The notes: a model not told the origin generated them from the letters alone. Counted from the stretch's first letter, positions 4,592-64,000 are shown. The stretch is 64,000 nt of DNA from Candidatus Kaiserbacteria bacterium (GCA_026713605.1 JAPOOC010000008.1:16889-80888), one strand, 5' to 3'. Numbers and translations: made by a program.

Positions 4592-4921
4592 TGTGTGGGC
4601 AGTTGTGTTCTGCGTGTTGGGTGTGGATTACTGACTTATGGGTTGTGGGTGCGGCGCAGTGTGGGTGTGGGAAGGTGTTTCCTCCATGGGTGTGGTTGCT
4701 TTTTCTGGTCGGAATGTGTGGTATACTGTGAGAGCGCATATCTCTGTGTGTTACGATGGTGGGTTGTGCGTGTATATTTTGTGCTGAGGGCGTTGATGAT
4801 CCTTACAATTATTTTCTATCTATAGTTTTATACAAAACTATGCAACACAACAAATTAACATTTGCAAGGGATAGTTGTACTTAACTGACAATTTTCTCTT
4901 GCTCCAACCGTTTTATTTTTC

Positions 4922-7316: not shown

Positions 7317-8576
7317 ATGCGGCAATCATTTTTGGCGACACGGGTGCGGAAGGAGGTGCCGGTTGATGAGGTTTCTTTGAACGCTCGACTTTTGATACGG
7401 GCGGGGTATATTCATAAGACAATGGCCGGGGTGTATAGTTTTTTACCGCTTGGGTTGCGGTCACTTAATAAGATCATTGGTATTATTCGTGAGGAGATGG
7501 AAGGTATTGGAGGGCAGGAGGTACTATTGAATGGGTTGCAGAATCCGGAGGTGTGGGAGCAGTCGGGTCGATGGCGGGGTGACGCCGATGAGGTGTGGTT
7601 TCGGACGCAGCTACGGGTTGGTGGGGAGGTGGGGCTGGGGTGGACACATGAGGAGCCGATCACTGATTTGGCTCGGCAGATAGTGCATTCGTATCGTGAT
7701 GTGCCGTTTTACCTGTATCAGTTTCAGACAAAGTTTCGTAATGAAGAGCGGGCGAAGAGTGGTATTTTGCGGACGCGGGAGTTTATTATGAAGGATTTGT
7801 ACTCTTTTTGTGCTGATGAGGAGGAACATAAGGTGTTTTACGAGCAATGTGCCGAGGCATATATGCGGGTGTTTGAACGGGTTGGTATCGGTCAGCAAAC
7901 CTATCGAACTTTTGCGAGCGGCGGGGCGTTTTCTGAATTTAGCGATGAATTTCAAACGGTGTTGCCAGCAGGAGAGGATGTTATTTATGTACATAAAGAG
8001 AAAGGGGTTGCGCTGAATAAGGAGGTGTATACGGATGCGGTGTTGGCGCGGCTGGAGTTGCAACGGGAAGAGTTGGAGGAGTACCCCGCATGTGAGGTGG
8101 GGAATATTTTTACCTTAGGCATGCGATTTTCTGATGCGTTGGGGCTTTTATATACGGATGGTAGGGGTACGCAGGTGCCGGTGTATATGGGGTCGTATGG
8201 CATTGGTCCTGCTCGATTGCTCGGCGTGATTGTTGAAATGGTTGGGTCGGATGCAGGGATGGTGTTGCCTGCGGCCGTTGCGCCGTTTGCTGTGCACCTT
8301 ATTGCGCTTGGGGAATCCGATGTGGTTCAGGGTGCGGCAGATGATCTGTATAGTGCGCTGACTGATCGAGGGGTTGAGGTGTTGTATGACGATCGTGCTA
8401 TGTCTGCTGGGGAAAAGTTTGCCGAGAGTGATATTGTGGGCATTCCGCGTCGGCTGGTGGTTTCTGAGAAGACCTGTGCGGCAGGGAAGGTGGAGTATGT
8501 TGATCGTGCCACAGGTGAGGAAGGGCGGTTGTTGGATACTGCTGTTGCCGGGATACTGCAGGAGTTATCAGCATAG
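7317..8576 (+). CDS. proS: prolyl-tRNA synthetase (short bacterial form without editing insertion)
   Basis: N-terminus MRQSFLATRVRKEVPVDEVSLNARLLIRAGYI matches the ProRS signature. Class II motifs present. C-terminal anticodon-binding region present. Confidence 0.85.
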   Translation: MRQSFLATRVRKEVPVDEVSLNARLLIRAGYIHKTMAGVYSFLPLGLRSLNKIIGIIREEMEGIGGQEVLLNGLQNPEVWEQSGRWRGDADEVWFRTQLRVGGEVGLGWTHEEPITDLARQIVHSYRDVPFYLYQFQTKFRNEERAKSGILRTREFIMKDLYSFCADEEEHKVFYEQCAEAYMRVFERVGIGQQTYRTFASGGAFSEFSDEFQTVLPAGEDVIYVHKEKGVALNKEVYTDAVLARLELQREELEEYPACEVGNIFTLGMRFSDALGLLYTDGRGTQVPVYMGSYGIGPARLLGVIVEMVGSDAGMVLPAAVAPFAVHLIALGESDVVQGAADDLYSALTDRGVEVLYDDRAMSAGEKFAESDIVGIPRRLVVSEKTCAAGKVEYVDRATGEEGRLLDTAVAGILQELSA

Positions 8577-14740: not shown

Positions 14741-15700
14741 TCAATTTTTTATAAACTCAAACGAGGCGATGGGGATTGATGGCACATTTCTGATTCTCGT
14801 GATTGATTCTCGTGGGTCCGTGTCGCTATCTTTTGAGGTGAATTCCGTTCCGTCGTCGGTACCAGCATCGTACAGTACTGCGGGGATGGTTACTCGCTCC
14901 ACCCACTCACCGTCTTTATAGAGTTGCACATTGCGTGCCGTAATGAACCAATCTGGACTCGGCGCAATCATAGATACGACCGTTATGTGTGGGGTGTCCC
15001 GCTCCATGGTGATTTGTGTTATATTTTCTCCGGGTGCGTTAAATACTGTGCCGGTGGCGTATGTCAGGGCTGCATCGGTATGGATACCACTTTGTATTTC
15101 CTGTATTAATGTGTTGGTTGCCCCGGTCTCTGCCATGATCTCCATGCCTTCACTGGCGGTGCCACCTTCTCTGAACAAGGTGTCTTTTCGGCGGTGTGAC
15201 CATGCGACCATTGGTGAAAGGTGTGCACCCTGCGGGTACCAGCGCGGGTGGAGTCGCTCGCTCCATGATGCGTGCAGGCGTATCGTATATATAGCAATAC
15301 CGTTGTTGGCATCAATTGGAAGATTTGGCTGTCGCAGCTGTTTTTCGGGAGTTTGATTGTCTTTCAGGGTGATGGTTGCCAGCACCTCTTCCTCCGTTGG
15401 TGGTGTTTGTGGTTCTGTGGTGTTGTTCTCTGCCGCCGTGTTGTCTATTTCTTGTATTTCATCCTCGTCTTCAAACAGTGTTTCTGGAGTAGTGATTGGT
15501 GCTACCTCTCCTTCCTCTTGTTGCAGTGGATTTCTAGTTGCGGACAAGAATACCAGCACGCTGAGAATGACAATGATAATAATCAACATTGTCATGTTTA
15601 GGGTAAATTTTTTTCGCACATCCATACTGTCTATGGTATAGCATAGTATTGTAGGGTTCCACTGATTATACATTGTATTTGTGGATTTTTTCTGAGACAC
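14741..15700 (-). CDS. secreted spondin_N-like domain protein
   Basis: N-terminal TM/signal, acidic linker, then a spondin_N-like core (HASWSERLHPRWYP...HLSPMVAWSH...APSPDWF). Confidence 0.55.
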   Translation of the reverse strand: MSQKKSTNTMYNQWNPTILCYTIDSMDVRKKFTLNMTMLIIIIVILSVLVFLSATRNPLQQEEGEVAPITTPETLFEDEDEIQEIDNTAAENNTTEPQTPPTEEEVLATITLKDNQTPEKQLRQPNLPIDANNGIAIYTIRLHASWSERLHPRWYPQGAHLSPMVAWSHRRKDTLFREGGTASEGMEIMAETGATNTLIQEIQSGIHTDAALTYATGTVFNAPGENITQITMERDTPHITVVSMIAPSPDWFITARNVQLYKDGEWVERVTIPAVLYDAGTDDGTEFTSKDSDTDPRESITRIRNVPSIPIASFEFIKN

Positions 15701-19475: not shown

Positions 19476-20123
19476 ATGGAGTTGTGGATTCTGATGTTGT
19501 TCGGTGCACCATATTCGGGTAAAAGTACTCACAGAAAGCATTTATGCGCCGCCTTCGAAGAGGGTGGGTATGAGTATCAGGTTGTTGATGTCGGCGGAAT
19601 GCTGAGGAAGTGTGTGCAGACGAACAATCCTTTCACACGAATTATTACAAGTGCTGCGGAGCATGGTGATCTGGTACCGCAGGAGGTTCCAATTTCTCTG
19701 TTCTTTGACAAGTTGTGTCGTGGTACCTATGATGTGGTGATTACCGATGGTATCGGGCGGAGGGTGTCTGAAATGCGTACCATTTTGGATGCACTCTTCC
19801 GGTGTGTTCCAGAGGCAATGCTTCGCATAGATGCCTTGCATCTTGACATTTCTTGGGATGAAATAGAAAATCGTTTCGATGCGGGCAGAGATGAGAAACG
19901 ATTGGATGACACCTTGGAGGTGTTGAAGAAGAGGTATTGCACTTTTCGTGCAGAGACACTGCCGGTGATTGATTATATAAGAAATTGCGGGCGTGTCGGG
20001 ATGCACACTGTCACCATGGGAAACAAGACAGAGGAGGAGGTGCATTGCGAGATCGCCTCAAGAATTGATATTACCCCTATTCATTTTGCGTCACAGCTAC
20101 TCTTAGATTCATATTTATTTTGA
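19476..20123 (+). CDS. adenylate kinase-like P-loop nucleotide kinase
   Basis: Walker A GAPYSGKST. GDLVPQEV similar to the Adk NMP-binding segment. SD AAGGAGG upstream. Confidence 0.5.
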   Translation: MELWILMLFGAPYSGKSTHRKHLCAAFEEGGYEYQVVDVGGMLRKCVQTNNPFTRIITSAAEHGDLVPQEVPISLFFDKLCRGTYDVVITDGIGRRVSEMRTILDALFRCVPEAMLRIDALHLDISWDEIENRFDAGRDEKRLDDTLEVLKKRYCTFRAETLPVIDYIRNCGRVGMHTVTMGNKTEEEVHCEIASRIDITPIHFASQLLLDSYLF

Positions 20124-51368: not shown

Positions 51369-51884
51369 ATGGAACTGCTACTATTTTTTATCACACTTTT
51401 TCTTCTTTTTTTAGTGTTTAGAAAGAAGCGGTCGCCTAAAAAAATATCCAAAGTACCGGATGTGTATGTGCCGCATGTGCGAAAAAAGCAATATTTCTTT
51501 ACGAGGAATGAACGATTGCTGTATGATTGCCTGTATCGCATTATACATAACAACGAGGCATATGATTTGTTCTCCAAGGTGCGTTGGGAGGATGTGTGGA
51601 CAGCAATTGATTGGCGCGACCGTGGCTATATTAGATCAAGACACATTGACTTTGTTATTTTCTCTAGAAAAACTGGAGAGATCGTGATGGTGGTTGAGTT
51701 ACATGGACAGGAACACTACACTAATCAGAAGCGAATTGAAAGAGACAGCCGTTTGGAGTGGATGTGTATTAATACTCACACAAAGTTGCTGGTTATTCGG
51801 AGTAGGAAGGAGTACAGCCACGATGCAATTAAAGGGGTGTTGAACAAATGCATCGCCAGTAAAGATACGGTTCATAAGTACTGA
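51369..51884 (+). CDS. membrane-anchored nuclease-fold protein (DUF2726/Vsr-DUF559-like core)
   Basis: N-terminal TM. Core RHIDFVIFSRKTGEIVMVVELHGQEH resembles the D...E-x-DG-xx-H restriction-endonuclease-like fold. Confidence 0.45.
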   Translation: MELLLFFITLFLLFLVFRKKRSPKKISKVPDVYVPHVRKKQYFFTRNERLLYDCLYRIIHNNEAYDLFSKVRWEDVWTAIDWRDRGYIRSRHIDFVIFSRKTGEIVMVVELHGQEHYTNQKRIERDSRLEWMCINTHTKLLVIRSRKEYSHDAIKGVLNKCIASKDTVHKY

Positions 51885-51963
51885 AACCCAACCTTTGCTA
51901 GACACGGTTTGACGGGCTGGACCTACTATTTAGCATATTTTTGTATGGGGTATACTGTCTGTA

Positions 51964-52557
51964 ATGAATCAAACAGAAGTATTGTCCGATGAGGTTGTTA
52001 CTCGGGTGCAGTTAATACGATATATCCTTGATCAGTTGGGTGGGAGGTGTGAATCTCTGAAATTAGTAAAACTCGTGGCGCTTTCTGATATCTATAAGTT
52101 GCGACGAGACGGTGAGACCATAACAAAGGATCGGTATGTTGCGATGAAAAATGGGCCGGCACCGTCTGTCACTGCAAATATTATCAGGTTTGATGATGGC
52201 TGGGTTGACGGGTCTGCTTTGGACTATGCGGGAGAGTACATAGAAACATGCAACACAGAAGTTTCTGCGAAAGATGTGCCAATGGAATACGACTACCTTT
52301 CAGATTTTGACAAAGAATGTGCTGACTATGTGGTGAGGAAATATGGAAATCTTTCGGCGAAGGATTTAATAGAAGGGAATGGTGGGGAGAATGTGCATGC
52401 ATTTGAGGCGTGGAAAAAGCATGGTGTGCGTGACTATGGTGTTGGGCAGGTGAAGCAGATACAGATGGAGGATTTTTTTGAAAATGATGGGCTGGTACAG
52501 GTAGACGAAGAAGATATACAAAAAGCGAGGGAGCGACATCTTTATGGCGATGTTTAA
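51964..52557 (+). CDS. Panacea (DUF4065/SocA-like) domain protein
   Basis: KLVKLVALSDIYKLRRDGETITKDRYVAMKNGPAPS matches the Panacea core. Confidence 0.55.
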   Translation: MNQTEVLSDEVVTRVQLIRYILDQLGGRCESLKLVKLVALSDIYKLRRDGETITKDRYVAMKNGPAPSVTANIIRFDDGWVDGSALDYAGEYIETCNTEVSAKDVPMEYDYLSDFDKECADYVVRKYGNLSAKDLIEGNGGENVHAFEAWKKHGVRDYGVGQVKQIQMEDFFENDGLVQVDEEDIQKARERHLYGDV

Positions 52558-52620
52558 GAGGCAAGATGTAAAGAGTTTTTGAGGAGTAAATGCTTGTATT
52601 TGGTTATCCACAGGTATTTT

Positions 52621-52640
52621 AGGTGGGGTGGGGTGGGGTA
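52621..52640 (+). promoter_or_regulatory. G-quadruplex-forming motif upstream of the tandem pilin genes
   Basis: aggtggggtggggtggggta has four G-tracts separated by single T, 43 nt upstream of the pilin ATG. Confidence 0.5.
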
Positions 52641-52682
52641 TATACTGGTATTGTTAGTAATTATAATAATTTTTTTAATACT

Positions 52683-53249
52683 ATGAATAATGAAAATAAT
52701 AATAGAAATAGGGGTTTCACCTTGATTGAGTTGCTCATTGTTATCGCTATCATTGGTGTGTTGGCGGCGACGGTGGTGGTATCGCTCGGAAGTCAGACAG
52801 ATCACGCAAAAGAAGGTTCACTAAAAATTGGTGTATCGTCTGTTCGATCGCTTGCGACTGTTGAGGCAACATCGCCATCAAAAGGAAATGACCTTAGTGG
52901 TACTAAGTTGTGTTCGTATATATATGGTAAGGTTTCTGGTGAAAAAGAAGATTGGACATGGAAGGCTAGTGTAGTTAATGATGCCATCAGCGGTACTCCT
53001 GTCATTTGCAGTGCTGATGATTCTACAACGAAAGAAAAGTCCGGCGAGATTTGTTGCTCGGCTGATGGTAACAAATGGGTGATTTGGAGTGCTCTGCCTA
53101 CGGCGGATGGTACTGGCGCCGAAAAAGATGTTTACTGCGCTGATAGTTCTGGGTTTACAGGTGAGGTAGAGTTGCAGGCAGACAGTGGAAGTGCGTCTAC
53201 GAAAGTGACGGATGGGCGGTCGTCGGATAATCCTACATCCTGTCAGTAG
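52683..53249 (+). CDS. type IV pilin / pseudopilin (prepilin N-terminal methylation motif)
   Basis: NRGFTLIELLIVIAIIGVLAA class III signal. C-terminal Cys pair. Confidence 0.8.
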   Translation: MNNENNNRNRGFTLIELLIVIAIIGVLAATVVVSLGSQTDHAKEGSLKIGVSSVRSLATVEATSPSKGNDLSGTKLCSYIYGKVSGEKEDWTWKASVVNDAISGTPVICSADDSTTKEKSGEICCSADGNKWVIWSALPTADGTGAEKDVYCADSSGFTGEVELQADSGSASTKVTDGRSSDNPTSCQ

Positions 53250-53266
53250 AAAATAGTTTGTACTGT

Positions 53267-53815
53267 ATGCTGAATATTGGACAGACAAGACAAAAGAATG
53301 CAGTAGGGGGTTTTACCTTGATTGAGCTTTTGATTGTGATTGCAATTATTGGAGTATTGGCAGCCACTGTTCTTGTTGTGCTGGGGAGTCAGACAAACAG
53401 TGCGACTGAAGGTAGTGTGCGGTTGAGTGTGTCCAGTATGCGAACCTTGGCGTATTCTGAGGTGGCGATAAACACAAAACTTTCTGGGCAGGCGTTGTGC
53501 AACGGCATATATGGCAGGGTTTCTGGTGAAAAAGATGGTTGGGAGTGGACGAATACACGAACATGTGAGCAAGGTGATTTGATCGCTGCAAGCGGTTTAA
53601 CGCAGGCCGCCGCAAGATCGAGCAATGCGAATGCTGCGGCAGGGGAGATTTGTTGTTTCTCAAGTAACACTGATTGGGTGATTTGGGGTGCTTTACCTAC
53701 GGCGGATGGTACTGGTGCCACCGAAGACGATATTTATTGCGCTGATAGCAAGGGGTTTCTTGGCAAGCATAAGGGTAGGCCTCAAGCAACTGGTACCAAT
53801 GCGAAATGTAAGTAA
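53267..53815 (+). CDS. type IV pilin / pseudopilin, tandem paralog
   Basis: GGFTLIELLIVIAIIGVLAA. Shares the C-terminal GEICC...WVIW.ALPTADGTGA...YCADS block with the upstream pilin. Confidence 0.8.
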   Translation: MLNIGQTRQKNAVGGFTLIELLIVIAIIGVLAATVLVVLGSQTNSATEGSVRLSVSSMRTLAYSEVAINTKLSGQALCNGIYGRVSGEKDGWEWTNTRTCEQGDLIAASGLTQAAARSSNANAAAGEICCFSSNTDWVIWGALPTADGTGATEDDIYCADSKGFLGKHKGRPQATGTNAKCK

Positions 53816-53839: not shown

Positions 53840-53871
53840 CATTAGACAAAAAACGAGCGAAAACCATTCGC
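53840..53871 (+). terminator. rho-independent terminator (copy 1 of a repeated terminator)
   Basis: aaacgagcgaaaaccattcgctcgtttttt. Confidence 0.7.
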
Positions 53872-53916
53872 TCGTTTTTTCTTGTGATTTTTATGGTGCT
53901 GTGTTAGAGTATTGTT

Positions 53917-54273
53917 ATGAATGATGCACCTAATGAAACAGAAAAACTCAACCGGAAAGAAATCGCCATTATGGTGGTGGGTGTACTTCTTGGATTGTCA
54001 GGAGGCATGGTATCAGATTACATTACTATGTTTCATAAGGAGATATTTCTGAAAAACCCTTTTGGATTTTCTTTGGTTGTTGTTTTCGTGGTTTCCGTCT
54101 TTGTCGCTTTTATTTTCATGCTGTTACATACTGATCTCTGGAAATCAACCCTTTTGTGTTCTGCGGTAACAGTTTTGAAAAAAGTGTGGAAGAGCTGTCT
54201 ATTTATTGTTGTACCTCTTTGTGCTTTGATTCTCCTTTCTTTCTGTTACGGTTACCAGATGGCAATGGGGTAA
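53917..54273 (+). CDS. membrane protein, copy 1 of duplicated gene
   Basis: 118 aa, 3 TM. ~85% identical to 56156-56518. Confidence 0.55.
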   Translation: MNDAPNETEKLNRKEIAIMVVGVLLGLSGGMVSDYITMFHKEIFLKNPFGFSLVVVFVVSVFVAFIFMLLHTDLWKSTLLCSAVTVLKKVWKSCLFIVVPLCALILLSFCYGYQMAMG

Positions 54274-54617: not shown

Positions 54618-55238
54618 TTGTTAAAATTAACAATCAGCGAACGGGTTGCAGTATTCCTTATCATCCTTTGTACTCTGATTGGACCTGCTAATGCTTATAT
54701 TGCGCGTAGCATACCTCTTCCGGAGGCGAATGTAATTTTTTACCCGCTAAAAGTTTGGGTTGATGCCGCTGTGCGGCGTCGAAACAAGTATTGGTGTGAG
54801 ATCAGGTTAGAATCCACTGTAGAAGTTCTCGGTGATGGTTTCGGGTATCTCTGTGTTGGAGACATAGCAGGTGGTGAGTTTTTGGATATTACGGATATGT
54901 TTTTTACAATTCGTGGTATACTTTTTGTTGATGATAGTGGACCACCTAATAAATTAGACATGAAAAATTATACAAAAGTTGCTGTGCTTGTTGGCTTACC
55001 GTATGTTGCAATTATGGCAGCGGTTCATGGATTTGGTTGGTTTTTAGTACTTGCGATTGTCGGTATACTTTACTTCCTACCAACTATCTGTGCGCTCAAT
55101 GCAAAGCACCACAATGTTGATGCCATAGCGATAGTAAACCTATTCCTTGGGTGGACTTTTGTTGGATGGGTAGTTGCACTTGCCATGGCTGTAACGAAAA
55201 GTGAGAAGAATCAAAAACAAAAAGACAATAGAGTGTAA
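54618..55238 (+). CDS. membrane protein with C-terminal superinfection-immunity (T4 Imm-like) domain
   Basis: C-terminal YFLPTICALNAKHHNVDAIAIVNLFLGWTFVGWVVALAMAV matches the Imm_superinfect pattern (F.P...A..R.H.N..AI..lNlllGWT.iGWv.AL.WA). Confidence 0.55.
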   Translation: MLKLTISERVAVFLIILCTLIGPANAYIARSIPLPEANVIFYPLKVWVDAAVRRRNKYWCEIRLESTVEVLGDGFGYLCVGDIAGGEFLDITDMFFTIRGILFVDDSGPPNKLDMKNYTKVAVLVGLPYVAIMAAVHGFGWFLVLAIVGILYFLPTICALNAKHHNVDAIAIVNLFLGWTFVGWVVALAMAVTKSEKNQKQKDNRV

Positions 55239-56155
55239 GCAGTGGCGGAAAAAATTTCTTGCTGTCTTAATAAAAATTCAGATGGTAATATCAAAGGGTC
55301 TGGGATTATACAGTTTTCAGATTTATAATATTGTGATTGCGGGTATCAAAAAAAGACCTCAAATTTTTGAGATCTTGATCTTCTTTTGAGGTCAGCTTCC
55401 GCAAAGCGGTACCTGCCATTCGCTTAGAGGGCAGTTAGACATAAGCCCGCCGACCAGTTTCAGTGTATTGTTAACCCCGAAAAAAGTCAAGCAATTTTCC
55501 ACACCGATTGTCTTATGTGTGTGGGCGAGGTCTATTTATGTGGGTATTGGCGTATTAAAAATATGTACTGGTTTTTCAGGGGCGGAGAGGGTGAGCGTGA
55601 CAATATCCACATAGGAGGTTAGATTTGAGCAGGGTGAGTGTAGTATAGGGGTGTGCATATACTGTTAAGAATATTGTAGTCCTATGTTTTTATCTCTTTT
55701 TAAGAAAAAAAATCTTCAGGTCTCTAATAAGGAAAGAGAGATATTGCGTCATTTTATTGATCGAGAGATTGAGAACATCAAGATGTTTGGTCCCGCAGAA
55801 GATTCTTACCAGGAGAATATACAAAGTTTAAAAGCTAAGCTTTCTTAGTTTGTGTTGTATGTTTGTTACTTGCGACGAATCCGGTGTTGGAGATCGTTTC
55901 TTTGTGTTGGGGTCTGCTTGGGTTCCAAAGGAAAATGTTTCAACATTTGAAAAATCTGTTTCTGAATTACGGCTACGCTTGAAAATTTTGAAAAGTTAAC
56001 TACTTGGTTAAAATTTTTAGGAATGATATGTGGTGTGTTCTAAAATCCACTACTGTAGAAGTTCTCGGTGATGGTTTCGGGTATCTCTGTGTTGGAGACA
56101 TAGCAGGTGGTGAGTTTTTCTTGTGATTTTTATGGTGTTGTGTTAGAATATTGTT

Positions 56156-56518
56156 ATGAATGATGTACCTAATGAAACAGAAATAGAAAAACTCACCTCG
56201 AAAGAAATCGCCCTTATGGTGGTGGGTGTACTTCTTGGATTGTCAGGAGGCATGGTATCAGATTACATTACTATGTTTCATAGGGATATATTTCTGGAAA
56301 ACCCTTTTTTGTTTTCTTCGGTTGCTGTTTCTGTGGTTTTTGTCTTTGTTGCTTCTATTTTCATGTTGCTACATACTGATCTCTGGAAATCAAACTTTTT
56401 GTGTTTTGCGGTAATAGTTTTGAAAAAAGTGTGGAAGAGTTGTCTATTTATTGTTGTGCCTCTTTGTGCTTTGATTCTCCTTTCTTTCTGTTACGGTTAC
56501 CAGATGCTAATGGGGTAA
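56156..56518 (+). CDS. membrane protein, copy 2 of duplicated gene
   Basis: 120 aa, paralog of 53917-54273 with the same leader sequence upstream. Confidence 0.55.
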   Translation: MNDVPNETEIEKLTSKEIALMVVGVLLGLSGGMVSDYITMFHRDIFLENPFLFSSVAVSVVFVFVASIFMLLHTDLWKSNFLCFAVIVLKKVWKSCLFIVVPLCALILLSFCYGYQMLMG

Positions 56519-56597
56519 CGAATGTAAATCCGAATCTGAAGCACAATAACTAAAAAAGCGCATACATCCGTTTGATATAATGAATATAATAAAAAAA

Positions 56598-56626
56598 AAC
56601 GAGCGAAAACCATTCGCTCGTTTTTT
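56598..56626 (+). terminator. rho-independent terminator (copy 2, identical hairpin)
   Basis: aaacgagcgaaaaccattcgctcgtttttt. Confidence 0.7.
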
Positions 56627-56812
56627 GTTTCTTGCAGTTTTTGTTGGTTTGGTGTAGTATATGAATAATCAAAGTGGGTTCAAGTTAAAAACAATTTTCA
56701 GATTAAGGTTTTGGCTATCATTGTTGTAATTGGTACGATAGTTGGGGTTATCCTCTGCTTTGCATTGACTTGCCCAAGTGCTCGTACGGCGTGTATTCAT
56801 AATAATATAGCA

Positions 56813-56956
56813 CCGCTAAAAGTTTGGGTTGATACCGCTGTGCGGCGTCGAAACAACAAGCGCTGGTGTGAGATCAGGTTAGAATCCACTGTAGAAGTTC
56901 TCGGTGATGGTTTCGGGTATCTCTGTGTTGGAGACATAGCAGGTGGTGAGTTTTTT
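56813..56956 (+). pseudogene. orphan fragment of the 54618 gene N-terminal region (third copy of a ~75-140-bp repeat)
   Basis: Encodes PLKVWVDTAVRRRN..WCEIRLESTVEVLGDGFGYLCVGDIAGGEF in frame but without the gene context. Its antisense supplies the last ~25 codons of the M16 peptidase. Confidence 0.5.
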
Positions 56957-58153
56957 GTTGTCCAGTATGCTGTTGGCGATGCGTTGTACATCGTCGGCTG
57001 TGACGGCGAGGATGTTTCGCTTATACTCTTCGTTGTTTTCAGGTGTGCCGCTTTGGGCGTAGGCATGCATTTGTTCACTTGCGATGGCACTCTTACTTTC
57101 TTGTTGTACGGCGTTGAGCCCGAGTAGAAATTCTTTGGCTTTTTTGAGTTCTGCTTCTGGTACGGGTGTTTTTTTGATTATGGCGCATTCATCAGCGATT
57201 GCTCCCATCACCTCTGTTGTTCGCTTTCCGCCGATGCCGGTGTAGATGGCGAACTCTCCAGTGTGGGTCATGAGGTCAATGAGCGTTTTGATGGTGTAAC
57301 ATGCGCCCAACTTCTCTCGCACTCGGAGAAAGAGGCGGGAACTCATTGAGCCGCCGAAGATAACATCAAACACTTCGGTTGTGTGGCGGTCTGTGCTGTT
57401 GTATGAGGGGGTGTAGCCGCCTATGACGATATGTGTTTGCTCTAGGTCGTTGCGTACGATGGAGCGATGGGTTTCTTTTGGTGCTGTTGGTGATACGGTT
57501 GCCTGTGCGGATTGTTCACCTTGCCTTGTGTCGCTGTATAGTTTTTCTAATTTTTGTAGCGTGCTGTCACGATCAAACTTTCCGGCAATAGAGATGATGG
57601 TGTTTTTTGCCGTGTAATGTTTTTGGAGAAAGTGCGTGAAGTTATCTCTGGAGAATGAGGCGACTGATTCTTCCGTTCCTAAGATTGGGTGTCCTGCGGC
57701 GGTGTCGTGGAAGAGTGATTGATTTACCTCGTCAAATGCTCGTGATGGCGGATCGTCACGATACATCGCTATTTCCTCAATGATCACCTTTTTCTCTTTG
57801 TCCAGTTCATTTGCGGGGAATAGGGAGTATAAGAAAATATCAGCAGTTAGGTGGAGCATGTCCTGGAGCCGTTCTGCTCGTCCGGACATGTGGTAGGCGG
57901 TGTATTCCCGATCGGTATACGCATTTGCTACTAATCCTGATTCATCCATACGGGTTACCAGCTCTTGATTTGTGGGGTAGGTTTTTGTCCCCTTGAAGCA
58001 CATATGTTCAAAGAAGTGTGCCAAGCCGTATTCGTTTTTTTCTTCATTGTTTGCGCCGATTGCGACGCCGACCAGCACGCATGCCGTCTCTGCTCGGTCA
58101 TCCGTACTTAGTAGCACCGTAATACCATTTTTCAATGTCTGTGTTTCAGTCAT
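56879..58153 (-). CDS. M16-family (pitrilysin/insulinase-like) zinc peptidase
   Basis: Inverted zinc motif HFFEHMCFKG (HxxEH), 424 aa. Confidence 0.8.
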   Translation of the reverse strand: MTETQTLKNGITVLLSTDDRAETACVLVGVAIGANNEEKNEYGLAHFFEHMCFKGTKTYPTNQELVTRMDESGLVANAYTDREYTAYHMSGRAERLQDMLHLTADIFLYSLFPANELDKEKKVIIEEIAMYRDDPPSRAFDEVNQSLFHDTAAGHPILGTEESVASFSRDNFTHFLQKHYTAKNTIISIAGKFDRDSTLQKLEKLYSDTRQGEQSAQATVSPTAPKETHRSIVRNDLEQTHIVIGGYTPSYNSTDRHTTEVFDVIFGGSMSSRLFLRVREKLGACYTIKTLIDLMTHTGEFAIYTGIGGKRTTEVMGAIADECAIIKKTPVPEAELKKAKEFLLGLNAVQQESKSAIASEQMHAYAQSGTPENNEEYKRNILAVTADDVQRIANSILDNKKLTTCYVSNTEIPETITENFYSGF

Positions 58154-59840: not shown

Positions 59841-60734
59841 ATGAAGCGTACTCTTGTGTTCCTGGTGTCTTGCGTGTTGGTTGGTTCGATCGGTTGGGGG
59901 ATGTATGTGTTTGCTCGTGCTGTTTTTGACATTGAAACCTATGAAGATGGGGTCCCCACCTTTCCGGAAGATCCTTCTTTTGTTCAGAAAAAAGTAAAAG
60001 ATGCAATACGGACTATGCGTACTGATCTTGGAGATTGGACGCCGGAAGCGTTGGACGATATTATACGGTCAGCCGCGCGCTTGTCTGCTGTTGGCGACCA
60101 AGTTTCCTTCATCTCGGAGCAATTTTTGGGTACGCCGTATATGGGTAATACGCTTACCGGAGACGAGGACGGTTCTGAGTATCTTACGGTTAACCTTGCC
60201 GGGCTGGATTGCTTCACCTACCTTGACTATGTGGAGGCGGCTCGTCAATCAGGTTCGTATGGCGCGTTTGTATGGTCATTATTGAGTACTCGGTATAAGG
60301 ATGGGTTTTTGGATTTTCAAGGACGCAACCACTTTTTCTCTGACTGGGTGGAATATAACCATGCTCAGGTTTCTGATGTGACCGGGGAGGTTGGTGGTGA
60401 TGCGGCAGTATCCGTTGCAAAGCAGTTGAATCAGAAAAAAGATGGCAGTGTTTTTCTGGAGGGGATTCCAATAGTGCCACGCACCATCACCTACATACCA
60501 ACCGTTGCTCTTACTGATGAGGTGCTCCAACGACTCCGCACTGGCGATTACATCGGCATCTATACTGATCTTGACGGCCTTGATGTGACGCACACTGGTA
60601 TTTTTATCAACAATGATCGTGGCATCTACCTCCGCCATGCCTCCTCTCGAGAAGGAGTGCAACAAGTTCTTGATGACGATTTCCTCACCTATCTCAAGGA
60701 CAAGCCAGGTATTGTGGTCTATCGTCCGCAGTAG
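59841..60734 (+). CDS. DUF1460-like (NlpC/P60 or transglutaminase-like Cys) domain protein, N-terminal TM
   Basis: LAGLDCFTYLDYVEAARQSG Cys-containing core. Its 3' end is part of a direct repeat. Confidence 0.45.
   Translation: MKRTLVFLVSCVLVGSIGWGMYVFARAVFDIETYEDGVPTFPEDPSFVQKKVKDAIRTMRTDLGDWTPEALDDIIRSAARLSAVGDQVSFISEQFLGTPYMGNTLTGDEDGSEYLTVNLAGLDCFTYLDYVEAARQSGSYGAFVWSLLSTRYKDGFLDFQGRNHFFSDWVEYNHAQVSDVTGEVGGDAAVSVAKQLNQKKDGSVFLEGIPIVPRTITYIPTVALTDEVLQRLRTGDYIGIYTDLDGLDVTHTGIFINNDRGIYLRHASSREGVQQVLDDDFLTYLKDKPGIVVYRPQ
60659..60734 (+). repeat. direct repeat copy 1 (~76 bp; 3' end of the DUF1460 gene)
   Basis: gcaacaagttcttgatgacgatttcctcacctatctcaaggacaagccaggtattgtggtctatcgtccgcagtag. 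Confidence 0.8.
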
Positions 60735-60761
60735 TTAAGCCCTTGCAGTAAATAGGTAATC

Positions 60762-62051
60762 TTGTATACTGTAGAACACATGCAGCCCAATCAGAGAATA
60801 GAAGAAATAAAAATTGAGGATCTTAAGCTCTGGAGTGAAAACCCAAGAGATCCCATTCAAGATGGCATGTCTGATTTTGAGATACTGAGTAGAGCAGTGA
60901 AGGATGACAAGAAAAAGTGGAATTTGACAAAGCTCATTGGAGAGATGGGGGCATATTATGACACAAGTGAGTTGCCAACGGTTGTTCTGCGCGGTAAAAG
61001 ATACATTGTGTATGACGGCAATAGAAGAGTGGCTATAATTAAATACCTTCAGCACCCTGAGTGGAGTAGTGAGATTGAAAGGTCCCTTTTTCCGACATCA
61101 GAGCCAGAAAACTTGAAAAACATGAAGCGGATACCATGCAATGTGTGTGATGAGGAAACAGCATTAAATAATATTGAGAGAAAGCATGTAAACAGCGGGT
61201 CATGGAAACAGCTGGATAGAGATTATTTTGAGCACATTCATCGTGGTAAGGAGAAGAGTTTGTTTCTGAAGTTTGAGGAGGCGACAGGGTTAATAAGCCA
61301 GCATTCTTTTTTGAATGAAAATATTATGAAAAATGATATTCTGACTGAAGGAAATCTCGAGGATATAGGGTTTTCCTTTGGTTCGGATGGTGTGTTGGTA
61401 TCCATGTATTCTGGTAATGATGCAGAGAAGATTTTGAAAAAAATTGTTGAGTTGAAAAAGTCAGGAACAATAGGATCAAGAGGTGAGCATAAATACGATA
61501 TGCAGACACCTCTTTCTAACGATAAGACATTGTCATTAAAAAGATTTAGATCCAAAGGTTCAGCACCTGTTATATTTCCAAAAATTGAAAACCCCTCTTT
61601 GCCAAGTCAAAGAAAAACAAAGAGAACAAAAACCGAAAGACCTCAATTTTTTGGACCTTCGCTTTCTCTGAAAGAGGGTGCAGCAAACGATGTGTATCGT
61701 GATATACTGGACCTGTATGAATTTTACAAGAGTAGAAGGGATGATCTCTCAACAACTTTTCCAAATTTGATACGGATGTCATTGAGGGTTCTGGTGGAGG
61801 CGGCGATGGGTAAGGGTGGAAAAATAGATTCATACATTAAGCAAAACTTTAAAGAGGCAAAAAAAGTTTTGACGAAAGATGAGAGGACAACACTTTCCAA
61901 TTATTCAGTTAGCAACTCTAAAAAATTGATTCAGCTGCTTCAAACGGGGGCGCATCAGTACTCAAGCTCCTCAAATATTGAGCAGATAGTCGCCATGTCT
62001 ATCATCATAGGTGCAATGCTAAAAATAACACACTCAAAAGAAGATGAGTAA
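60762..62051 (+). CDS. ParB-like nuclease (ParBc/sulfiredoxin-fold) domain protein
   Basis: N-terminal LWSENPRD...YIVYDGNRRVAI (ParB-like DGxxR motif), 429 aa. Stop overlaps the MTase start. Confidence 0.55.
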   Translation: MYTVEHMQPNQRIEEIKIEDLKLWSENPRDPIQDGMSDFEILSRAVKDDKKKWNLTKLIGEMGAYYDTSELPTVVLRGKRYIVYDGNRRVAIIKYLQHPEWSSEIERSLFPTSEPENLKNMKRIPCNVCDEETALNNIERKHVNSGSWKQLDRDYFEHIHRGKEKSLFLKFEEATGLISQHSFLNENIMKNDILTEGNLEDIGFSFGSDGVLVSMYSGNDAEKILKKIVELKKSGTIGSRGEHKYDMQTPLSNDKTLSLKRFRSKGSAPVIFPKIENPSLPSQRKTKRTKTERPQFFGPSLSLKEGAANDVYRDILDLYEFYKSRRDDLSTTFPNLIRMSLRVLVEAAMGKGGKIDSYIKQNFKEAKKVLTKDERTTLSNYSVSNSKKLIQLLQTGAHQYSSSSNIEQIVAMSIIIGAMLKITHSKEDE

Positions 62052-62859
62052 ATCTCCACTCAGGTATCCTGGAGGAAAAGCAAAGTTTAGCGGATACTTT
62101 GCTGATATTTTGAAAAAGAAGGACATACAATCCCCTATGTTTGTTGAGCCATATTGTGGTGGCGCGGGAGCTGCTATAAAACTTTTATTGTCTGGAATGG
62201 TCGGAAAGATATATTTAAATGATATTGATAGAAGTATTTATGCCTTTTGGCACTCTGTTCGCAATGAGAATGAACGATTGGTGCGGAAAATTATGAAAAC
62301 TTTAATTACACTTGATGAATTTGACAAACAGAAAGTTATTCAATCAAAAAAAGATAGCGTTGATTTATTTACTCTGGGATTCTCAACCTTATTTTTAAAT
62401 AGGACAACATTTTCTGGTATTATTTCTGGCGGACCTATTGGGGGGAGGAAGCAGTCAGGTGCATATCTCCTTGATTGTAGATTCAACCGAAGGGAAATTG
62501 CAAGGCGGGTACAAAGAATTGGAGAATATAAAAAGCAAATAAGAATTTTTAACAAGGATGCGGAAGATTTTTTAAATTTGTCAACAATCAATAATCTGCC
62601 AAAGGAGAGAGCAATCTTTTATGTAGACCCACCGTATGTTGAAAAAGGCCCGTCCTTGTATTTGAGTATATATACACTTGAAGATCATGCGAAGATAGAA
62701 AAATTGTTGCGAGGGTGTGATAAGCATGTATATGTTTCCTATGACGACTGTAAAGAGATACGAGAAATTTATAGCAAATGGAGTAAGCAAAAAGTGGTTG
62801 TGCCACATCATGCTGGTCAATTTAAAATGGGCAAGGAAGTTATTCTGTCTATGCAGTAG
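62044..62859 (+). CDS. dam: D12-class N6-adenine DNA methyltransferase (Dam family)
   Basis: RYPGGKAKF...FVEPYCGGAGAAIKLL motif I region and DPPY (FYVDPPYVEKG). Confidence 0.8.
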   Translation: MSKSPLRYPGGKAKFSGYFADILKKKDIQSPMFVEPYCGGAGAAIKLLLSGMVGKIYLNDIDRSIYAFWHSVRNENERLVRKIMKTLITLDEFDKQKVIQSKKDSVDLFTLGFSTLFLNRTTFSGIISGGPIGGRKQSGAYLLDCRFNRREIARRVQRIGEYKKQIRIFNKDAEDFLNLSTINNLPKERAIFYVDPPYVEKGPSLYLSIYTLEDHAKIEKLLRGCDKHVYVSYDDCKEIREIYSKWSKQKVVVPHHAGQFKMGKEVILSMQ

Positions 62860-62864
62860 CGAGC

Positions 62865-62940
62865 GCAACAAGTTCTTGATGACGATTTCCTCACCTATCT
62901 CAAGAACAAGCCAGGTATTGTGGTCTATCGCCCGCAGTAG
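62865..62940 (+). repeat. direct repeat copy 2 (~76 bp, 4 mismatches to copy 1)
   Basis: gcaacaagttcttgatgacgatttcctcacctatctcaagaacaagccaggtattgtggtctatcgcccgcagtag. Confidence 0.8.
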
Positions 62941-62988
62941 TGCCGCTTTGCCGGCAGAGGAGAGTAAAAAGGTGAGTACTATATACAT

Positions 62989-63765
62989 ATGCAGGTATTT
63001 TTTGACACACAAAAGAAGGAGGTAGAGAAATATAGTAGTGAATCACAAAGAATTAGATTTTTGTCTGAACGCTGGGTTGGTAATGAAATCTTTTGTCCGC
63101 ACTGCGGAGAAGGAAGTTTATACCCGTTTGAAAACAATCGACCTGCAGCTGATTTCTATTGTAGGAATTGCAAGGAGGAGTATGAATTAAAAAGCAAGAA
63201 AAATGCTATTGGTGGCGAGGTGTTGGATGGGGCGTATAAAACAATGATTGAGCGACTACAAAATCACAATAATCCACATTTCTTTTTTTTGACCTATAAC
63301 CCTGCGGACTACTCAATTAAAAACTTTATGGTTATACCAAAGCACTTTTTTGTTCCGAGTGTTATTAAGAAGAGGAAGCCCTTATCTTCGAATGCAAGAC
63401 GGGTGGGTTGGGTTGGTTGTAATGTCTTGCTGAAAAATATCTCTGAGAGTGGAAAAATTTTTTATGTCAAAGATGGGTATGTTGAGAAAAGGAGGAATGT
63501 TTTGAAAAATTGGCAGAGAACTTTGTTCTTGAGAGATGCTCGGAAAGCAGAGTTGAGAGGGTGGCTGTTGGATGTTATGTATTGCATAGATACATTAGGC
63601 AGAAAAGAATTCACTTTGCAAGAGATGTACTCTTTTGAAAAGATATTGAATGAAAAACATCCTAACAATGTAAATATAAGACCAAAAATTAGACAGCAAC
63701 TACAGTTTTTGCGAGATAAGAATTATCTTGTTTTTCTTGGTGCTGGAAAGTATAAAGTGAGATAA
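62989..63765 (+). CDS. DpnI-like / Dam-replacing-protein (DRP) family methyl-directed endonuclease homolog
   Basis: CPHCGEGSLYPFENNRPAADFYCRNCKEEYELKSKK and NNPHFFFLTY...RKPLSSNARRVGW match, from memory, the DpnI/DRP N-terminal domain. C-terminal winged-helix-like region. Confidence 0.5.
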   Translation: MQVFFDTQKKEVEKYSSESQRIRFLSERWVGNEIFCPHCGEGSLYPFENNRPAADFYCRNCKEEYELKSKKNAIGGEVLDGAYKTMIERLQNHNNPHFFFLTYNPADYSIKNFMVIPKHFFVPSVIKKRKPLSSNARRVGWVGCNVLLKNISESGKIFYVKDGYVEKRRNVLKNWQRTLFLRDARKAELRGWLLDVMYCIDTLGRKEFTLQEMYSFEKILNEKHPNNVNIRPKIRQQLQFLRDKNYLVFLGAGKYKVR

Positions 63766-63789
63766 ATTTTGCTGTATTATGAGGGTATA

Positions 63790-63945
63790 TGGAGGTATTG
63801 AATAAAAAAGATGAAAGGGATTTATTAGACCAAGCGATGGCGCTTTTAATAAAAGTGCAGTTGGGTAATGGAAATAAAAAGGTGGGGCAAACCCTTGACA
63901 GCATCACGGATGATTTGGACTCTCTTCTCTATGATGAGTATTAAG
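63790..63945 (+). CDS. small acidic hypothetical protein
   Basis: 51-aa ORF with AGG-rich upstream region. Low support. Confidence 0.2.
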
Positions 63946-64000
63946 GTCGGATCACTGCGATATTTTTTTACAAATGGTATACTATAAAGGTGTGTCAAAA

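Follow-up and report, generated by a model that had tools for sequence, protein, structure and literature searches.

A PD-Lambda-5-like defence cassette between two copies of a core-gene 3' end in a Candidatus Kaiserbacteria genome

We analysed a stretch of 64,000 nucleotides from a Candidatus Kaiserbacteria bacterium (GCA_026713605.1, JAPOOC010000008.1:16889-80888; hereafter the window), in which a two-gene cassette lies between two direct copies of the 3' end of a core gene, the AmiA-like/DUF1460 gene. Judged by its genes, the cassette is a chromosomal defence system of the PD-Lambda-5 type, similar to restriction-modification (R-M) systems. The duplication is real and fairly ordinary, a recombination scar such as has been reported before for mobile R-M units. 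So far, it agrees with known biology and does not amount to a novel type of element. On balance, we lean towards the view that the cassette, carrying a donor copy of the AmiA-like gene end, entered a genome in which the AmiA-like gene was followed by a DpnI-like gene, and that it did so by integrase-free, homology-anchored recombination.

The duplicated gene end

The repeat copies (Table 1) are 81 nt long and identical at 78 positions. The three mismatches (left/right) are T/C at position 4, G/A at position 45 and T/C at position 71. The number of such matches expected by chance in the 64-kb window is ~2e-33. The left copy (R_L) is the AmiA-like gene end in use. The right copy (R_R) starts 1 nt past the stop codon of the methyltransferase (MTase) gene (62857-62859) and stops 47 nt short of the DpnI-like gene. 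By itself, R_R matched by blastn the AmiA-like 3' end of a related locus, L014 (fetched loci carry L numbers). Just two copies were found in the window and the whole of the neighbouring defence island. The original prediction had described 76 nt with four mismatches. The repeat is present, slightly longer and cleaner than described, and the 76-nt span contains two mismatches, not four.

The region 60600-63000 was base-for-base identical in three separately assembled contigs: MKWU01000165.1, which belongs to a “Candidatus Kaiserbacteria bacterium” metagenome-assembled genome (MAG; GCA_001753035.1), and two ENA MEGAHIT contigs. The presence of both junctions in three independent assemblies excludes an assembly artefact or chimera. 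The left junction alone was found in six fetched loci, and the right junction in nine, representing seven distinct contigs because L016 and L017 duplicate L006 and L002. The repeat copies share an exact 40-mer, and two Logan contigs start there, inside R_R. Such a start is expected for an assembler with a small k, which we take to be k=31 for Logan.

Assemblies of several samples break within the cassette, at 61037/61051 (L010/L002), 61900/61919 (L012/L005) and 62135/62201 (L011/L008). The paired pieces almost abut, and low coverage or strain heterogeneity within the cassette are candidate causes. R_R is also in the reading frame of the MTase gene (62857-62943), where read-through of the TAG after …SMQ would add 27 residues, RAQQVLDDDFLTYLKNKPGIVVYRPQ, up to the next stop. 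The shared frame is probably a coincidence, with one chance in three.

The mismatches have a polarity. R_L, in use, encodes V and D at the two sites that change an amino acid, and R_R, non-coding, would encode A and N, the homologue-typical residues at both. N is found in most of 60 homologues, and repeat position 45 is A in 4/4 relatives. R_R is as close as R_L, or closer, to every relative. A neutral duplicate decaying in place should itself carry the derived changes, and the opposite is seen. With R_R typical and R_L unusual, the copies appear to be two functional alleles that were joined, not a gene end and its decayed duplicate, and R_R looks like the second functional allele. This polarity is an argument for the joining of two alleles and against a staggered cut. 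The position at which the repeat ends on its outer side, 1 nt past the AmiA-like stop codon, points the same way: it suits a homology limit between strains with different cargo, and would be arbitrary for a staggered cut.

Table 1 Features of the AmiA-like locus and the cassette, in window coordinates.
Feature	Position	Strand	Description
AmiA-like/DUF1460 gene, 297 aa	59841..60734	+	Pfam PF07313, 4.3e-70; core gene, 3' end is the duplicated target
Left repeat, R_L	60655..60735	+	AmiA-like 3' end in use; last 77 nt, stop TAG (60732-60734) and 1 nt
Segment between repeats	60736..62860	+	2,125 bp; PD-Lambda-5-like cassette; GC 37.7%
Promoter-like TTGCAG - 16 nt - TATACT	60743..60770	+	Read by eye; L018 alignment
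Gene A, 423 aa	60780..62051	+	ParB/Srx-fold N-domain and HEPN-like C-domain; presumed sensor/effector
Gene B, 271 aa	62044..62859	+	D12-class DNA methyltransferase, DPPY motif
Right repeat, R_R	62861..62941	+	Orphan non-coding AmiA-like 3' end
DpnI-like methyl-directed restriction enzyme	62989..63765	+	DpnI 1.5e-73, DpnI_C 5e-30; PADLOC mREase_II 1.8e-107

The cassette and its family

The segment between the repeats had been taken for an insert, and it has the properties of a discrete, compositionally foreign module. Its G + C (GC) content is 37.7%, versus 45.5-46.6% for host sequence. The GC content at third codon positions (GC3) was 0.32-0.39 in the cassette and 0.46-0.57 in core genes. The cassette was also the lower of the two in L018, another Kaiserbacterium with the same cassette, and in both genomes together the ranges were 0.30-0.39 and 0.41-0.57. 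DNA homology with the L018 cassette spans 60743-62852, with 73.8% identity. Therefore, apart from at most 7 nt at its left end and 1 nt at its right end, the conserved module takes up the whole of this space.

The start of gene B overlaps the stop of gene A by 8 nt, as it does in L018. Gene B is translationally coupled to gene A, in an operon with its own predicted promoter. Only 9 nt separate the -10-like box from the gene A ATG, and L018 has the equivalent TTGTAG ... TATTAT (L018 10979-11017). The TTGCAG/TATACT pair was below the threshold of the promoter/terminator scan and is thus not listed there. No Shine-Dalgarno sequence was visible ahead of gene A (60743-60782), which, with the closeness of the -10-like box to the ATG, suggests that the gene A transcript is leaderless or near-leaderless. 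The DpnI-like gene has a similar geometry, with a TATATA that ends 3 nt before its ATG.

Gene B matched Pfam PF02086 (8.1e-19) and, near end to end, the PADLOC model PD-Lambda-5_B (3.5e-97). It was also scored as MTase_II in PADLOC. Gene A matched 23 PD-Lambda-5_A models, the best with 1.5e-14 over residues 7-152, and two models covered 290-350 residues. Both marks of a PD-Lambda-5 system were found, the A and B matches and their adjacency in one operon. Pfam, searched with gene A and 34 family members, gave no ParB family, even at E<=1, and no other family, and a profile search of PDB with protein A gave no match. By fold comparison, protein A has a ParB/Srx-fold N-domain with the conserved box motifs ENPRD and DGNRR, a disordered basic linker at about residues 270-286 and a HEPN-like helical C-domain. 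The earlier label “ParB-like” is thus supported at the fold level, and is not matched at the Pfam level (0/34 family members).

The earlier assignments of the AmiA-like/DUF1460, D12 MTase and DpnI-like genes agreed with Pfam (~4e-70 for the first, 8e-19 for the second; Table 1). “Dam-class” fits gene B at the level of Pfam D12, and does not extend to similarity with solved Dam enzymes. In a phmmer search of PDB (E<=1e-3), the sole match was M.CbeI (7M6B, 8e-14), an alpha-class N4-cytosine MTase, and the solved Dam, T4 Dam and DpnM were not matched. Its sequence thus places gene B as a predicted D12-class MTase and excludes a close Dam relative. Characterised DpnI relatives cut methylated GATC. 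GATC methylation would presumably be lethal beside an active DpnI-like enzyme. Since gene B is unlike the GATC Dam enzymes, the apparent conflict with the adjoining DpnI-like enzyme is removed. GATC was only mildly under-represented in the genome.

Protein A relatives were found in 159 stretches of a species-representative genome collection, from bacteria of the Candidate Phyla Radiation (CPR), DPANN archaea, Bacteroidota, Proteobacteria and others. Gene A was followed by an adjacent D12 MTase gene on the same strand in ~72/80 fetched loci, both bacterial and archaeal. After Kaiserbacteria, the closest protein A sequences were from DPANN archaea, with 54-57% identity (Pacearchaeota, Woesearchaeota, Nanoarchaeota; L020, L021, L078; P0124, P0137), which points to exchange of the cassette across domains among small-genome episymbionts. 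Protein A had no match in 50,697 phage records or in 72,556 plasmid records, and was found in 3 of 2.9 million viral contigs. The original prediction had seen in the cassette an anti-restriction or epigenetic module typical of phages and plasmids. That view is not supported: the genes match PD-Lambda-5, and the phage and plasmid collections are empty of protein A.

PD-Lambda-5 was described as a compact “RM+Abi”-like system (R-M plus abortive infection) with broad phage protection (Vassallo et al. 2022, PMC9519451). The cassette resembles it as a two-gene operon of an MTase and a partner, and the HEPN-like C-domain fits the “Abi” part. By analogy, MTase B would mark the DNA of the cell itself, and A would act on unmodified (phage) DNA. 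Unlike the E. coli system, which is prophage-borne, the subfamily found here is chromosomal and near-absent from the phage and plasmid collections. A further difference is that the strong match of protein A is confined to its N-terminal 150 residues, and that its function is predicted.

Flanking repeats were searched for in 69 family loci, using mismatched-flank and inverted-repeat controls. A comparable repeat was found in L038 only (Flavobacteriaceae MAG JAIUMH010000093.1), where a 99-nt intergenic direct repeat (93% identical; 4676-4774 / 8134-8232) brackets a Mrr-like type IV enzyme, protein A and the MTase. Since it is intergenic there, and no other locus has one, we rejected the repeat as an intrinsic end of the cassette. 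We also rejected a functional tie of the cassette to methyl-directed enzymes (DpnI-like here, Mrr-like in L038), as neither was seen again in the other 83 fetched loci encoding a protein A relative. A mrr-deleted host was required for cloning of the E. coli PD-Lambda-5 (PMC9519451), and the Mrr-like gene in the L038 block is worth recording beside this.

Cargo hotspots around the core block

A low-GC defence island of ~9.3 kb, of which the cassette is the first module, extends from the AmiA-like gene to a tRNA-Asn gene, and the low GC runs on beyond the right repeat. The next module, outside the cassette, is the DpnI-like gene. The part after R_R (62989-64000 and on; L009 13149-20314) further encodes a 51-aa open reading frame (ORF), a 776-aa HerA-like ATPase, a Shedu SduA protein (1.6e-64) and a BglII-like type II R-M system with a helix-turn-helix controller protein. 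The island ends at the tRNA-Asn(GTT) gene, whose 3' end faces it, and the mreB, L9 and aldolase genes lie beyond. No integrase, transposase or recombinase was found between the AmiA-like gene and tRNA-Asn. There were no terminal inverted repeats pairing the cassette ends, and no tRNA-Asn fragment copies (scars of attachment, att, sites) in the island.

The nearest AmiA-like protein in the databases is 63% identical, and comparison with relatives is thus at the synteny level only. The order M16 peptidase - membrane protein - (Vut_1) - AmiA-like is kept in relatives. Those with AmiA-like proteins of 60-63% identity have the same flanks and different cargo. The interval from the AmiA-like gene to tRNA-Asn holds two R-M systems in L014, and in L013 it measures ~0.57 kb, an almost empty hotspot, at the synteny level only. 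In L015, large unrelated genes follow the AmiA-like gene, and mreB and tRNA-Asn are absent from the fetched stretch. The conserved flanks and different cargo show that this interval is a hotspot for cargo. It resembles known defence hotspots bounded by core and tRNA genes, with varied defence cargo between the AmiA-like gene and tRNA-Asn/mreB. In contrast to those, the islands here are without integrase, and core-gene stubs occur here and not in four relatives.

In Neisseria, dam and drg, a Dam-replacing gene of the DpnI family, replace each other as alleles (Pfam PF06044 description). As there, a D12 MTase gene and a DpnI-family gene, alternative or neighbouring, are found here at one locus, with a repeat at the junction. 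The differences are that both genes are here in tandem, that the MTase is no Dam orthologue, and that none of 80 other cassette loci has a DpnI-like gene paired with the cassette.

The opposite edge of the core block holds a second set of gene-end copies. The M16 peptidase gene (56879-58153, minus strand) has its 3' end present three times, at 54744-54883, 56019-56119 and 56813-56955, the last being the real end. The copies have 97-98% identity, with 68 nt at 100%, and their common inner boundary (...GGTGAGTTTTT) is 77 nt ahead of the stop. The cargo that they enclose is small, consisting of an Imm_superinfect gene, paralogous membrane ORFs of 118/120 aa (91% identical) and copies of one terminator hairpin, with which the stretches 53848-54273 and 56115-56629 are associated. 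In relatives, a flavodoxin gene directly adjoins M16. The block M16 - membrane protein - Vut_1 - AmiA-like thus has gene-end stubs beside variable cargo at both outer edges. As the M16 stubs have the same signature as the AmiA-like stub, they support a homology-anchored capture. We found no core-gene stub duplications in four relatives.

Further observations concern the surroundings of the hotspots. Upstream of M16, the stretch 51369-53815 encodes DUF2726, SocA_Panacea and a pair of type IV pilin-like (N_methyl) paralogues that contain internal repeats (52711-53120, 53307-53719), and the whole of it is absent from L014 and L015. L018 has a 25-nt copy of the tRNA-Asn 3' end (15114-15138 / 15342-15366), 228 nt from the tRNA and near an rve-family gene, a possible att scar. 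It also has a 67-nt unit in about six tandem copies (19489-19957), adjoining an MTase-HNH gene.

The tetranucleotide ACGT occurs four times in the window (6075, 25755, 31219, 31414), versus ~118 expected in 60.7 kb, and GGCC (ratio 0.28) and CTAG (0.39) are depleted too. The island, here taken as 9.4 kb, has no ACGT, versus ~6.4 expected. L013 and L018 avoid ACGT as well (0 of 35-41 expected); L014 and L015 do not. This suggests that the lineage was long exposed to ACGT-specific restriction, and that lineages avoiding ACGT were the source of the island DNA, or a filter through which it passed. As a clock of residence, the ACGT-free composition was rejected for the cassette, which is too short (0 observed, 1.3 expected).

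How the arrangement may have arisen

In the origin we favour, the donor would be DNA of a related Kaiserbacterium, in which an AmiA-like 3' end was followed by the cassette. This DNA would pair with the resident AmiA-like gene. Its other end would join illegitimately, or a circle would enter by a single crossover. The cassette would thereby be inserted, and the last 81 nt of the resident gene pushed downstream as an orphan stub ahead of the DpnI-like gene. An arrangement of the donor type, the AmiA-like gene followed by the cassette, exists in L018. The analysis establishes the repeat, the limits of the module, its gene families, the hotspot, the lack of mobility genes and the allele-like character of the mismatches. 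From these we infer which way the event ran, how the recombination took place and what A and B do biochemically.

“Insertion with long target duplication” is known for R-M units (Nobusato et al. 2000; Furuta, Abe & Kobayashi 2010, PMC2853133). The cases in PMC2853133 were defined by R and M genes in the insert, an insert of <20 kb, a duplication of >30 bp, no mobility genes and a comparison genome with the empty site. Here, the insert of 2,125 bp carries an MTase and an R-like gene, the R role of A being by homology only, and the duplication has 81 nt. Mobility genes are missing, and the repeat consists of the AmiA-like 3' end instead of an att site of the tRNA type. The likeness extends to host repeats that overlap the 3' end of a neighbour, to near-identical, imperfect repeats and to an insert GC below that of the genome. 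There are three differences. The unit is known here from its architecture, with no empty-site genome for comparison. Its partner gene is a ParB-fold/HEPN-like PD-Lambda-5_A, not a classical restriction endonuclease, and the host is a CPR bacterium. Finally, the mismatches indicate that two alleles were joined, and not a duplication in place.

A similar displacement of 3' ends, by homology-facilitated illegitimate recombination, was proposed for effector-immunity arrays of rhs, contact-dependent inhibition (CDI) and type VI secretion systems (T6SS; Kirchberger et al. 2017, PMC5361080, citing Jackson et al. 2009, de Vries & Wackernagel 2002 and Prudhomme et al. 2002). There too, a conserved upstream gene is the anchor, a new module comes in and the old 3' part is orphaned downstream. 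Repeated events make arrays, to which the three M16 3' ends may be compared. Unlike in those systems, the 81-nt stub belongs to a housekeeping-type gene, without a toxin tip or immunity gene, the cargo is for defence and the pathway is a proposed one. Of the two options in the original prediction, a target-site duplication or a recombination scar, the scar is the better one. A duplication of the transposon type does not fit, with 81 nt being too long and a transposase, an integrase and terminal inverted repeats missing.

Several results weigh against a homology-anchored entry of the cassette. Exact-protein searches with the AmiA-like and DpnI-like proteins revealed no empty site: all six contigs encoding the identical AmiA-like protein run into the cassette. 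When JGI metagenome contigs were scanned for the shared 40-mer, two contigs only were found, both filled. A hybrid AmiA allele, such as excision would produce, was not seen, the AmiA-like protein cluster having a single member. With no empty-site genome or contig, the insertion is inferred from architecture only. In L018, whose AmiA-like protein is about 61-63% identical, the cassette stands directly after the AmiA-like gene, with the cognate MTase gene next, at the same position and without a flanking repeat. Its protein A is the closest relative (72% identical). The identity between the two genomes was 72% for the cassette, 63% for the AmiA-like protein, 78.5% for aldolase, 80% for L9 and 82% for MreB. 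The divergence of the cassette is thus within the range of core proteins, and an old vertical residence, as read from these identities, is possible. The polarity argument rests on three sites and on homologues of ~60% identity, and long flanking direct repeats in the cassette family are limited to two strong cases in 69 loci (here and L038). The identical inner boundary of the M16 copies is not predicted by random illegitimate joints. As to the defence role of the cargo, a nuclease or RNase activity of protein A is putative, and the protein lacks the canonical HEPN motif Rx4-6H: in no aligned member does an Arg stand 4-6 residues ahead of the invariant H392 (…QTGAH…) and H418.

The low GC3 of the cassette in both genomes, despite 28% protein divergence, counts against a long vertical residence. 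However, the “recent” insertion of the original prediction is unproven, as the empty site proposed as its check (the DUF1460 gene directly followed by the DpnI-like gene) was found in no relative or contig, and L018 has the same cassette in the same position without repeats. The presence of the cassette with identical flanks in all relatives had been named as evidence for an ancient cassette. L018 does carry the cassette, and lacks the flanking repeats.

The most serious alternative reverses the order of events, and we consider it possible, though rather unlikely. The cassette would be the resident, and the block from the DpnI-like gene to the BglII-like R-M system would have come later from a related strain that had it right behind its AmiA-like gene. 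That block would have been anchored at tRNA-Asn/mreB, and its left end, 81 nt inside the AmiA-like gene of the donor, joined illegitimately after the MTase stop. R_R would then be the stub of the donor's AmiA-like gene, which explains its look of a functional allele equally well. The repeat-free cassette at the same position in L018, with a divergence in the core range, agrees with this order, and the downstream block is likewise low-GC foreign DNA. Against it, a foreign segment of 7.3 kb is needed instead of 2.1 kb. An AmiA-like gene directly followed by a DpnI-like gene was not found, and the two closest DpnI-like homologues on long contigs are in unrelated contexts. Moreover, the cassette is unameliorated in both genomes despite the 28% protein divergence. 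The order with the cassette as newcomer is modestly favoured over that with the DpnI block as newcomer because of the smaller foreign segment, the donor-type arrangement in L018, the unameliorated composition and the absence of a relative with AmiA-like and DpnI-like genes adjoining. None of these four points is decisive.

It is improbable that the cassette acted as an autonomous selfish R-M unit, either inserting itself or exploiting breaks made by the ParB-fold protein, with staggered nicks, fill-in and later divergence of the copies. This general mode was proposed for R-M units (PMC2853133), the insert is almost exactly the conserved module, and the L038 block is also flanked by direct repeats of 99 nt. 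However, such an insertion predicts derived changes chiefly in the neutral right copy, the reverse of what was observed, and the end of the duplication at a stop codon would be a coincidence. Besides, 67/69 family loci are without such repeats, and the nuclease activity of protein A is putative.

Integration at an att site by a trans-acting integrase, or a transposon whose target duplication is unusually long, is very improbable and close to refuted. Elements that integrate into a 3' end and bring a replacement 3' end give the same picture, as do phage 21 and e14 in icd, and the island abuts a tRNA gene. Yet neither the cassette nor the island encodes an integrase, transposase or recombinase, there are no terminal inverted repeats or tRNA-Asn fragment copies, and the repeat comes from the host and is no conserved end of the cassette family. 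We thus rejected a transposon or insertion sequence (no transposase, no inverted repeat pairing the insert ends, 81 nt too long) and an integrase-type genomic island (recombinase missing from the AmiA-like gene to tRNA-Asn, tRNA-Asn fragments missing). A chimera of two strain variants or a chance repeat, which the metagenomic source and the contigs breaking within the repeat or cassette might suggest, has a negligible probability, given the identical spanning of both junctions by three independent assemblies, the random expectation of ~2e-33 and Logan breaks that coincide with an exact 40-mer longer than a small assembly k-mer.

The locus is a clear example, from an uncultivated CPR bacterium (Kaiserbacteria), of how a long duplication of host sequence can enclose an R-M-like defence unit without mobility genes. 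It belongs to a PD-Lambda-5-like subfamily, a ParB-fold + HEPN-like protein with a D12 MTase, that is widespread and chromosomal, in CPR, DPANN archaea and many other phyla. Two independent hotspots flank one 4-kb core block, with the 81-nt AmiA-like stub at one and three M16 stubs at the other, a hint that the process may be a habit of the lineage instead of a single accident. A more speculative idea, to which we give little credence, is that this CPR lineage may routinely capture cargo and defence modules without integrases, anchored on core-gene 3' ends, each capture leaving a stub. A cassette between two stubs would then be a “homology-armed” module, able to loop out as a 2,206-bp circle and to re-enter any genome with the AmiA-like gene. 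If this is true, the excised state is predicted to read AmiA-like unique sequence - one repeat - GCCGCTTTGCCGG, and the circle junction MTase end - repeat - TAAGCCCTTGCAG. If the stub signature is common, it could be used to date and order the acquisition of modules in integrase-less defence islands.

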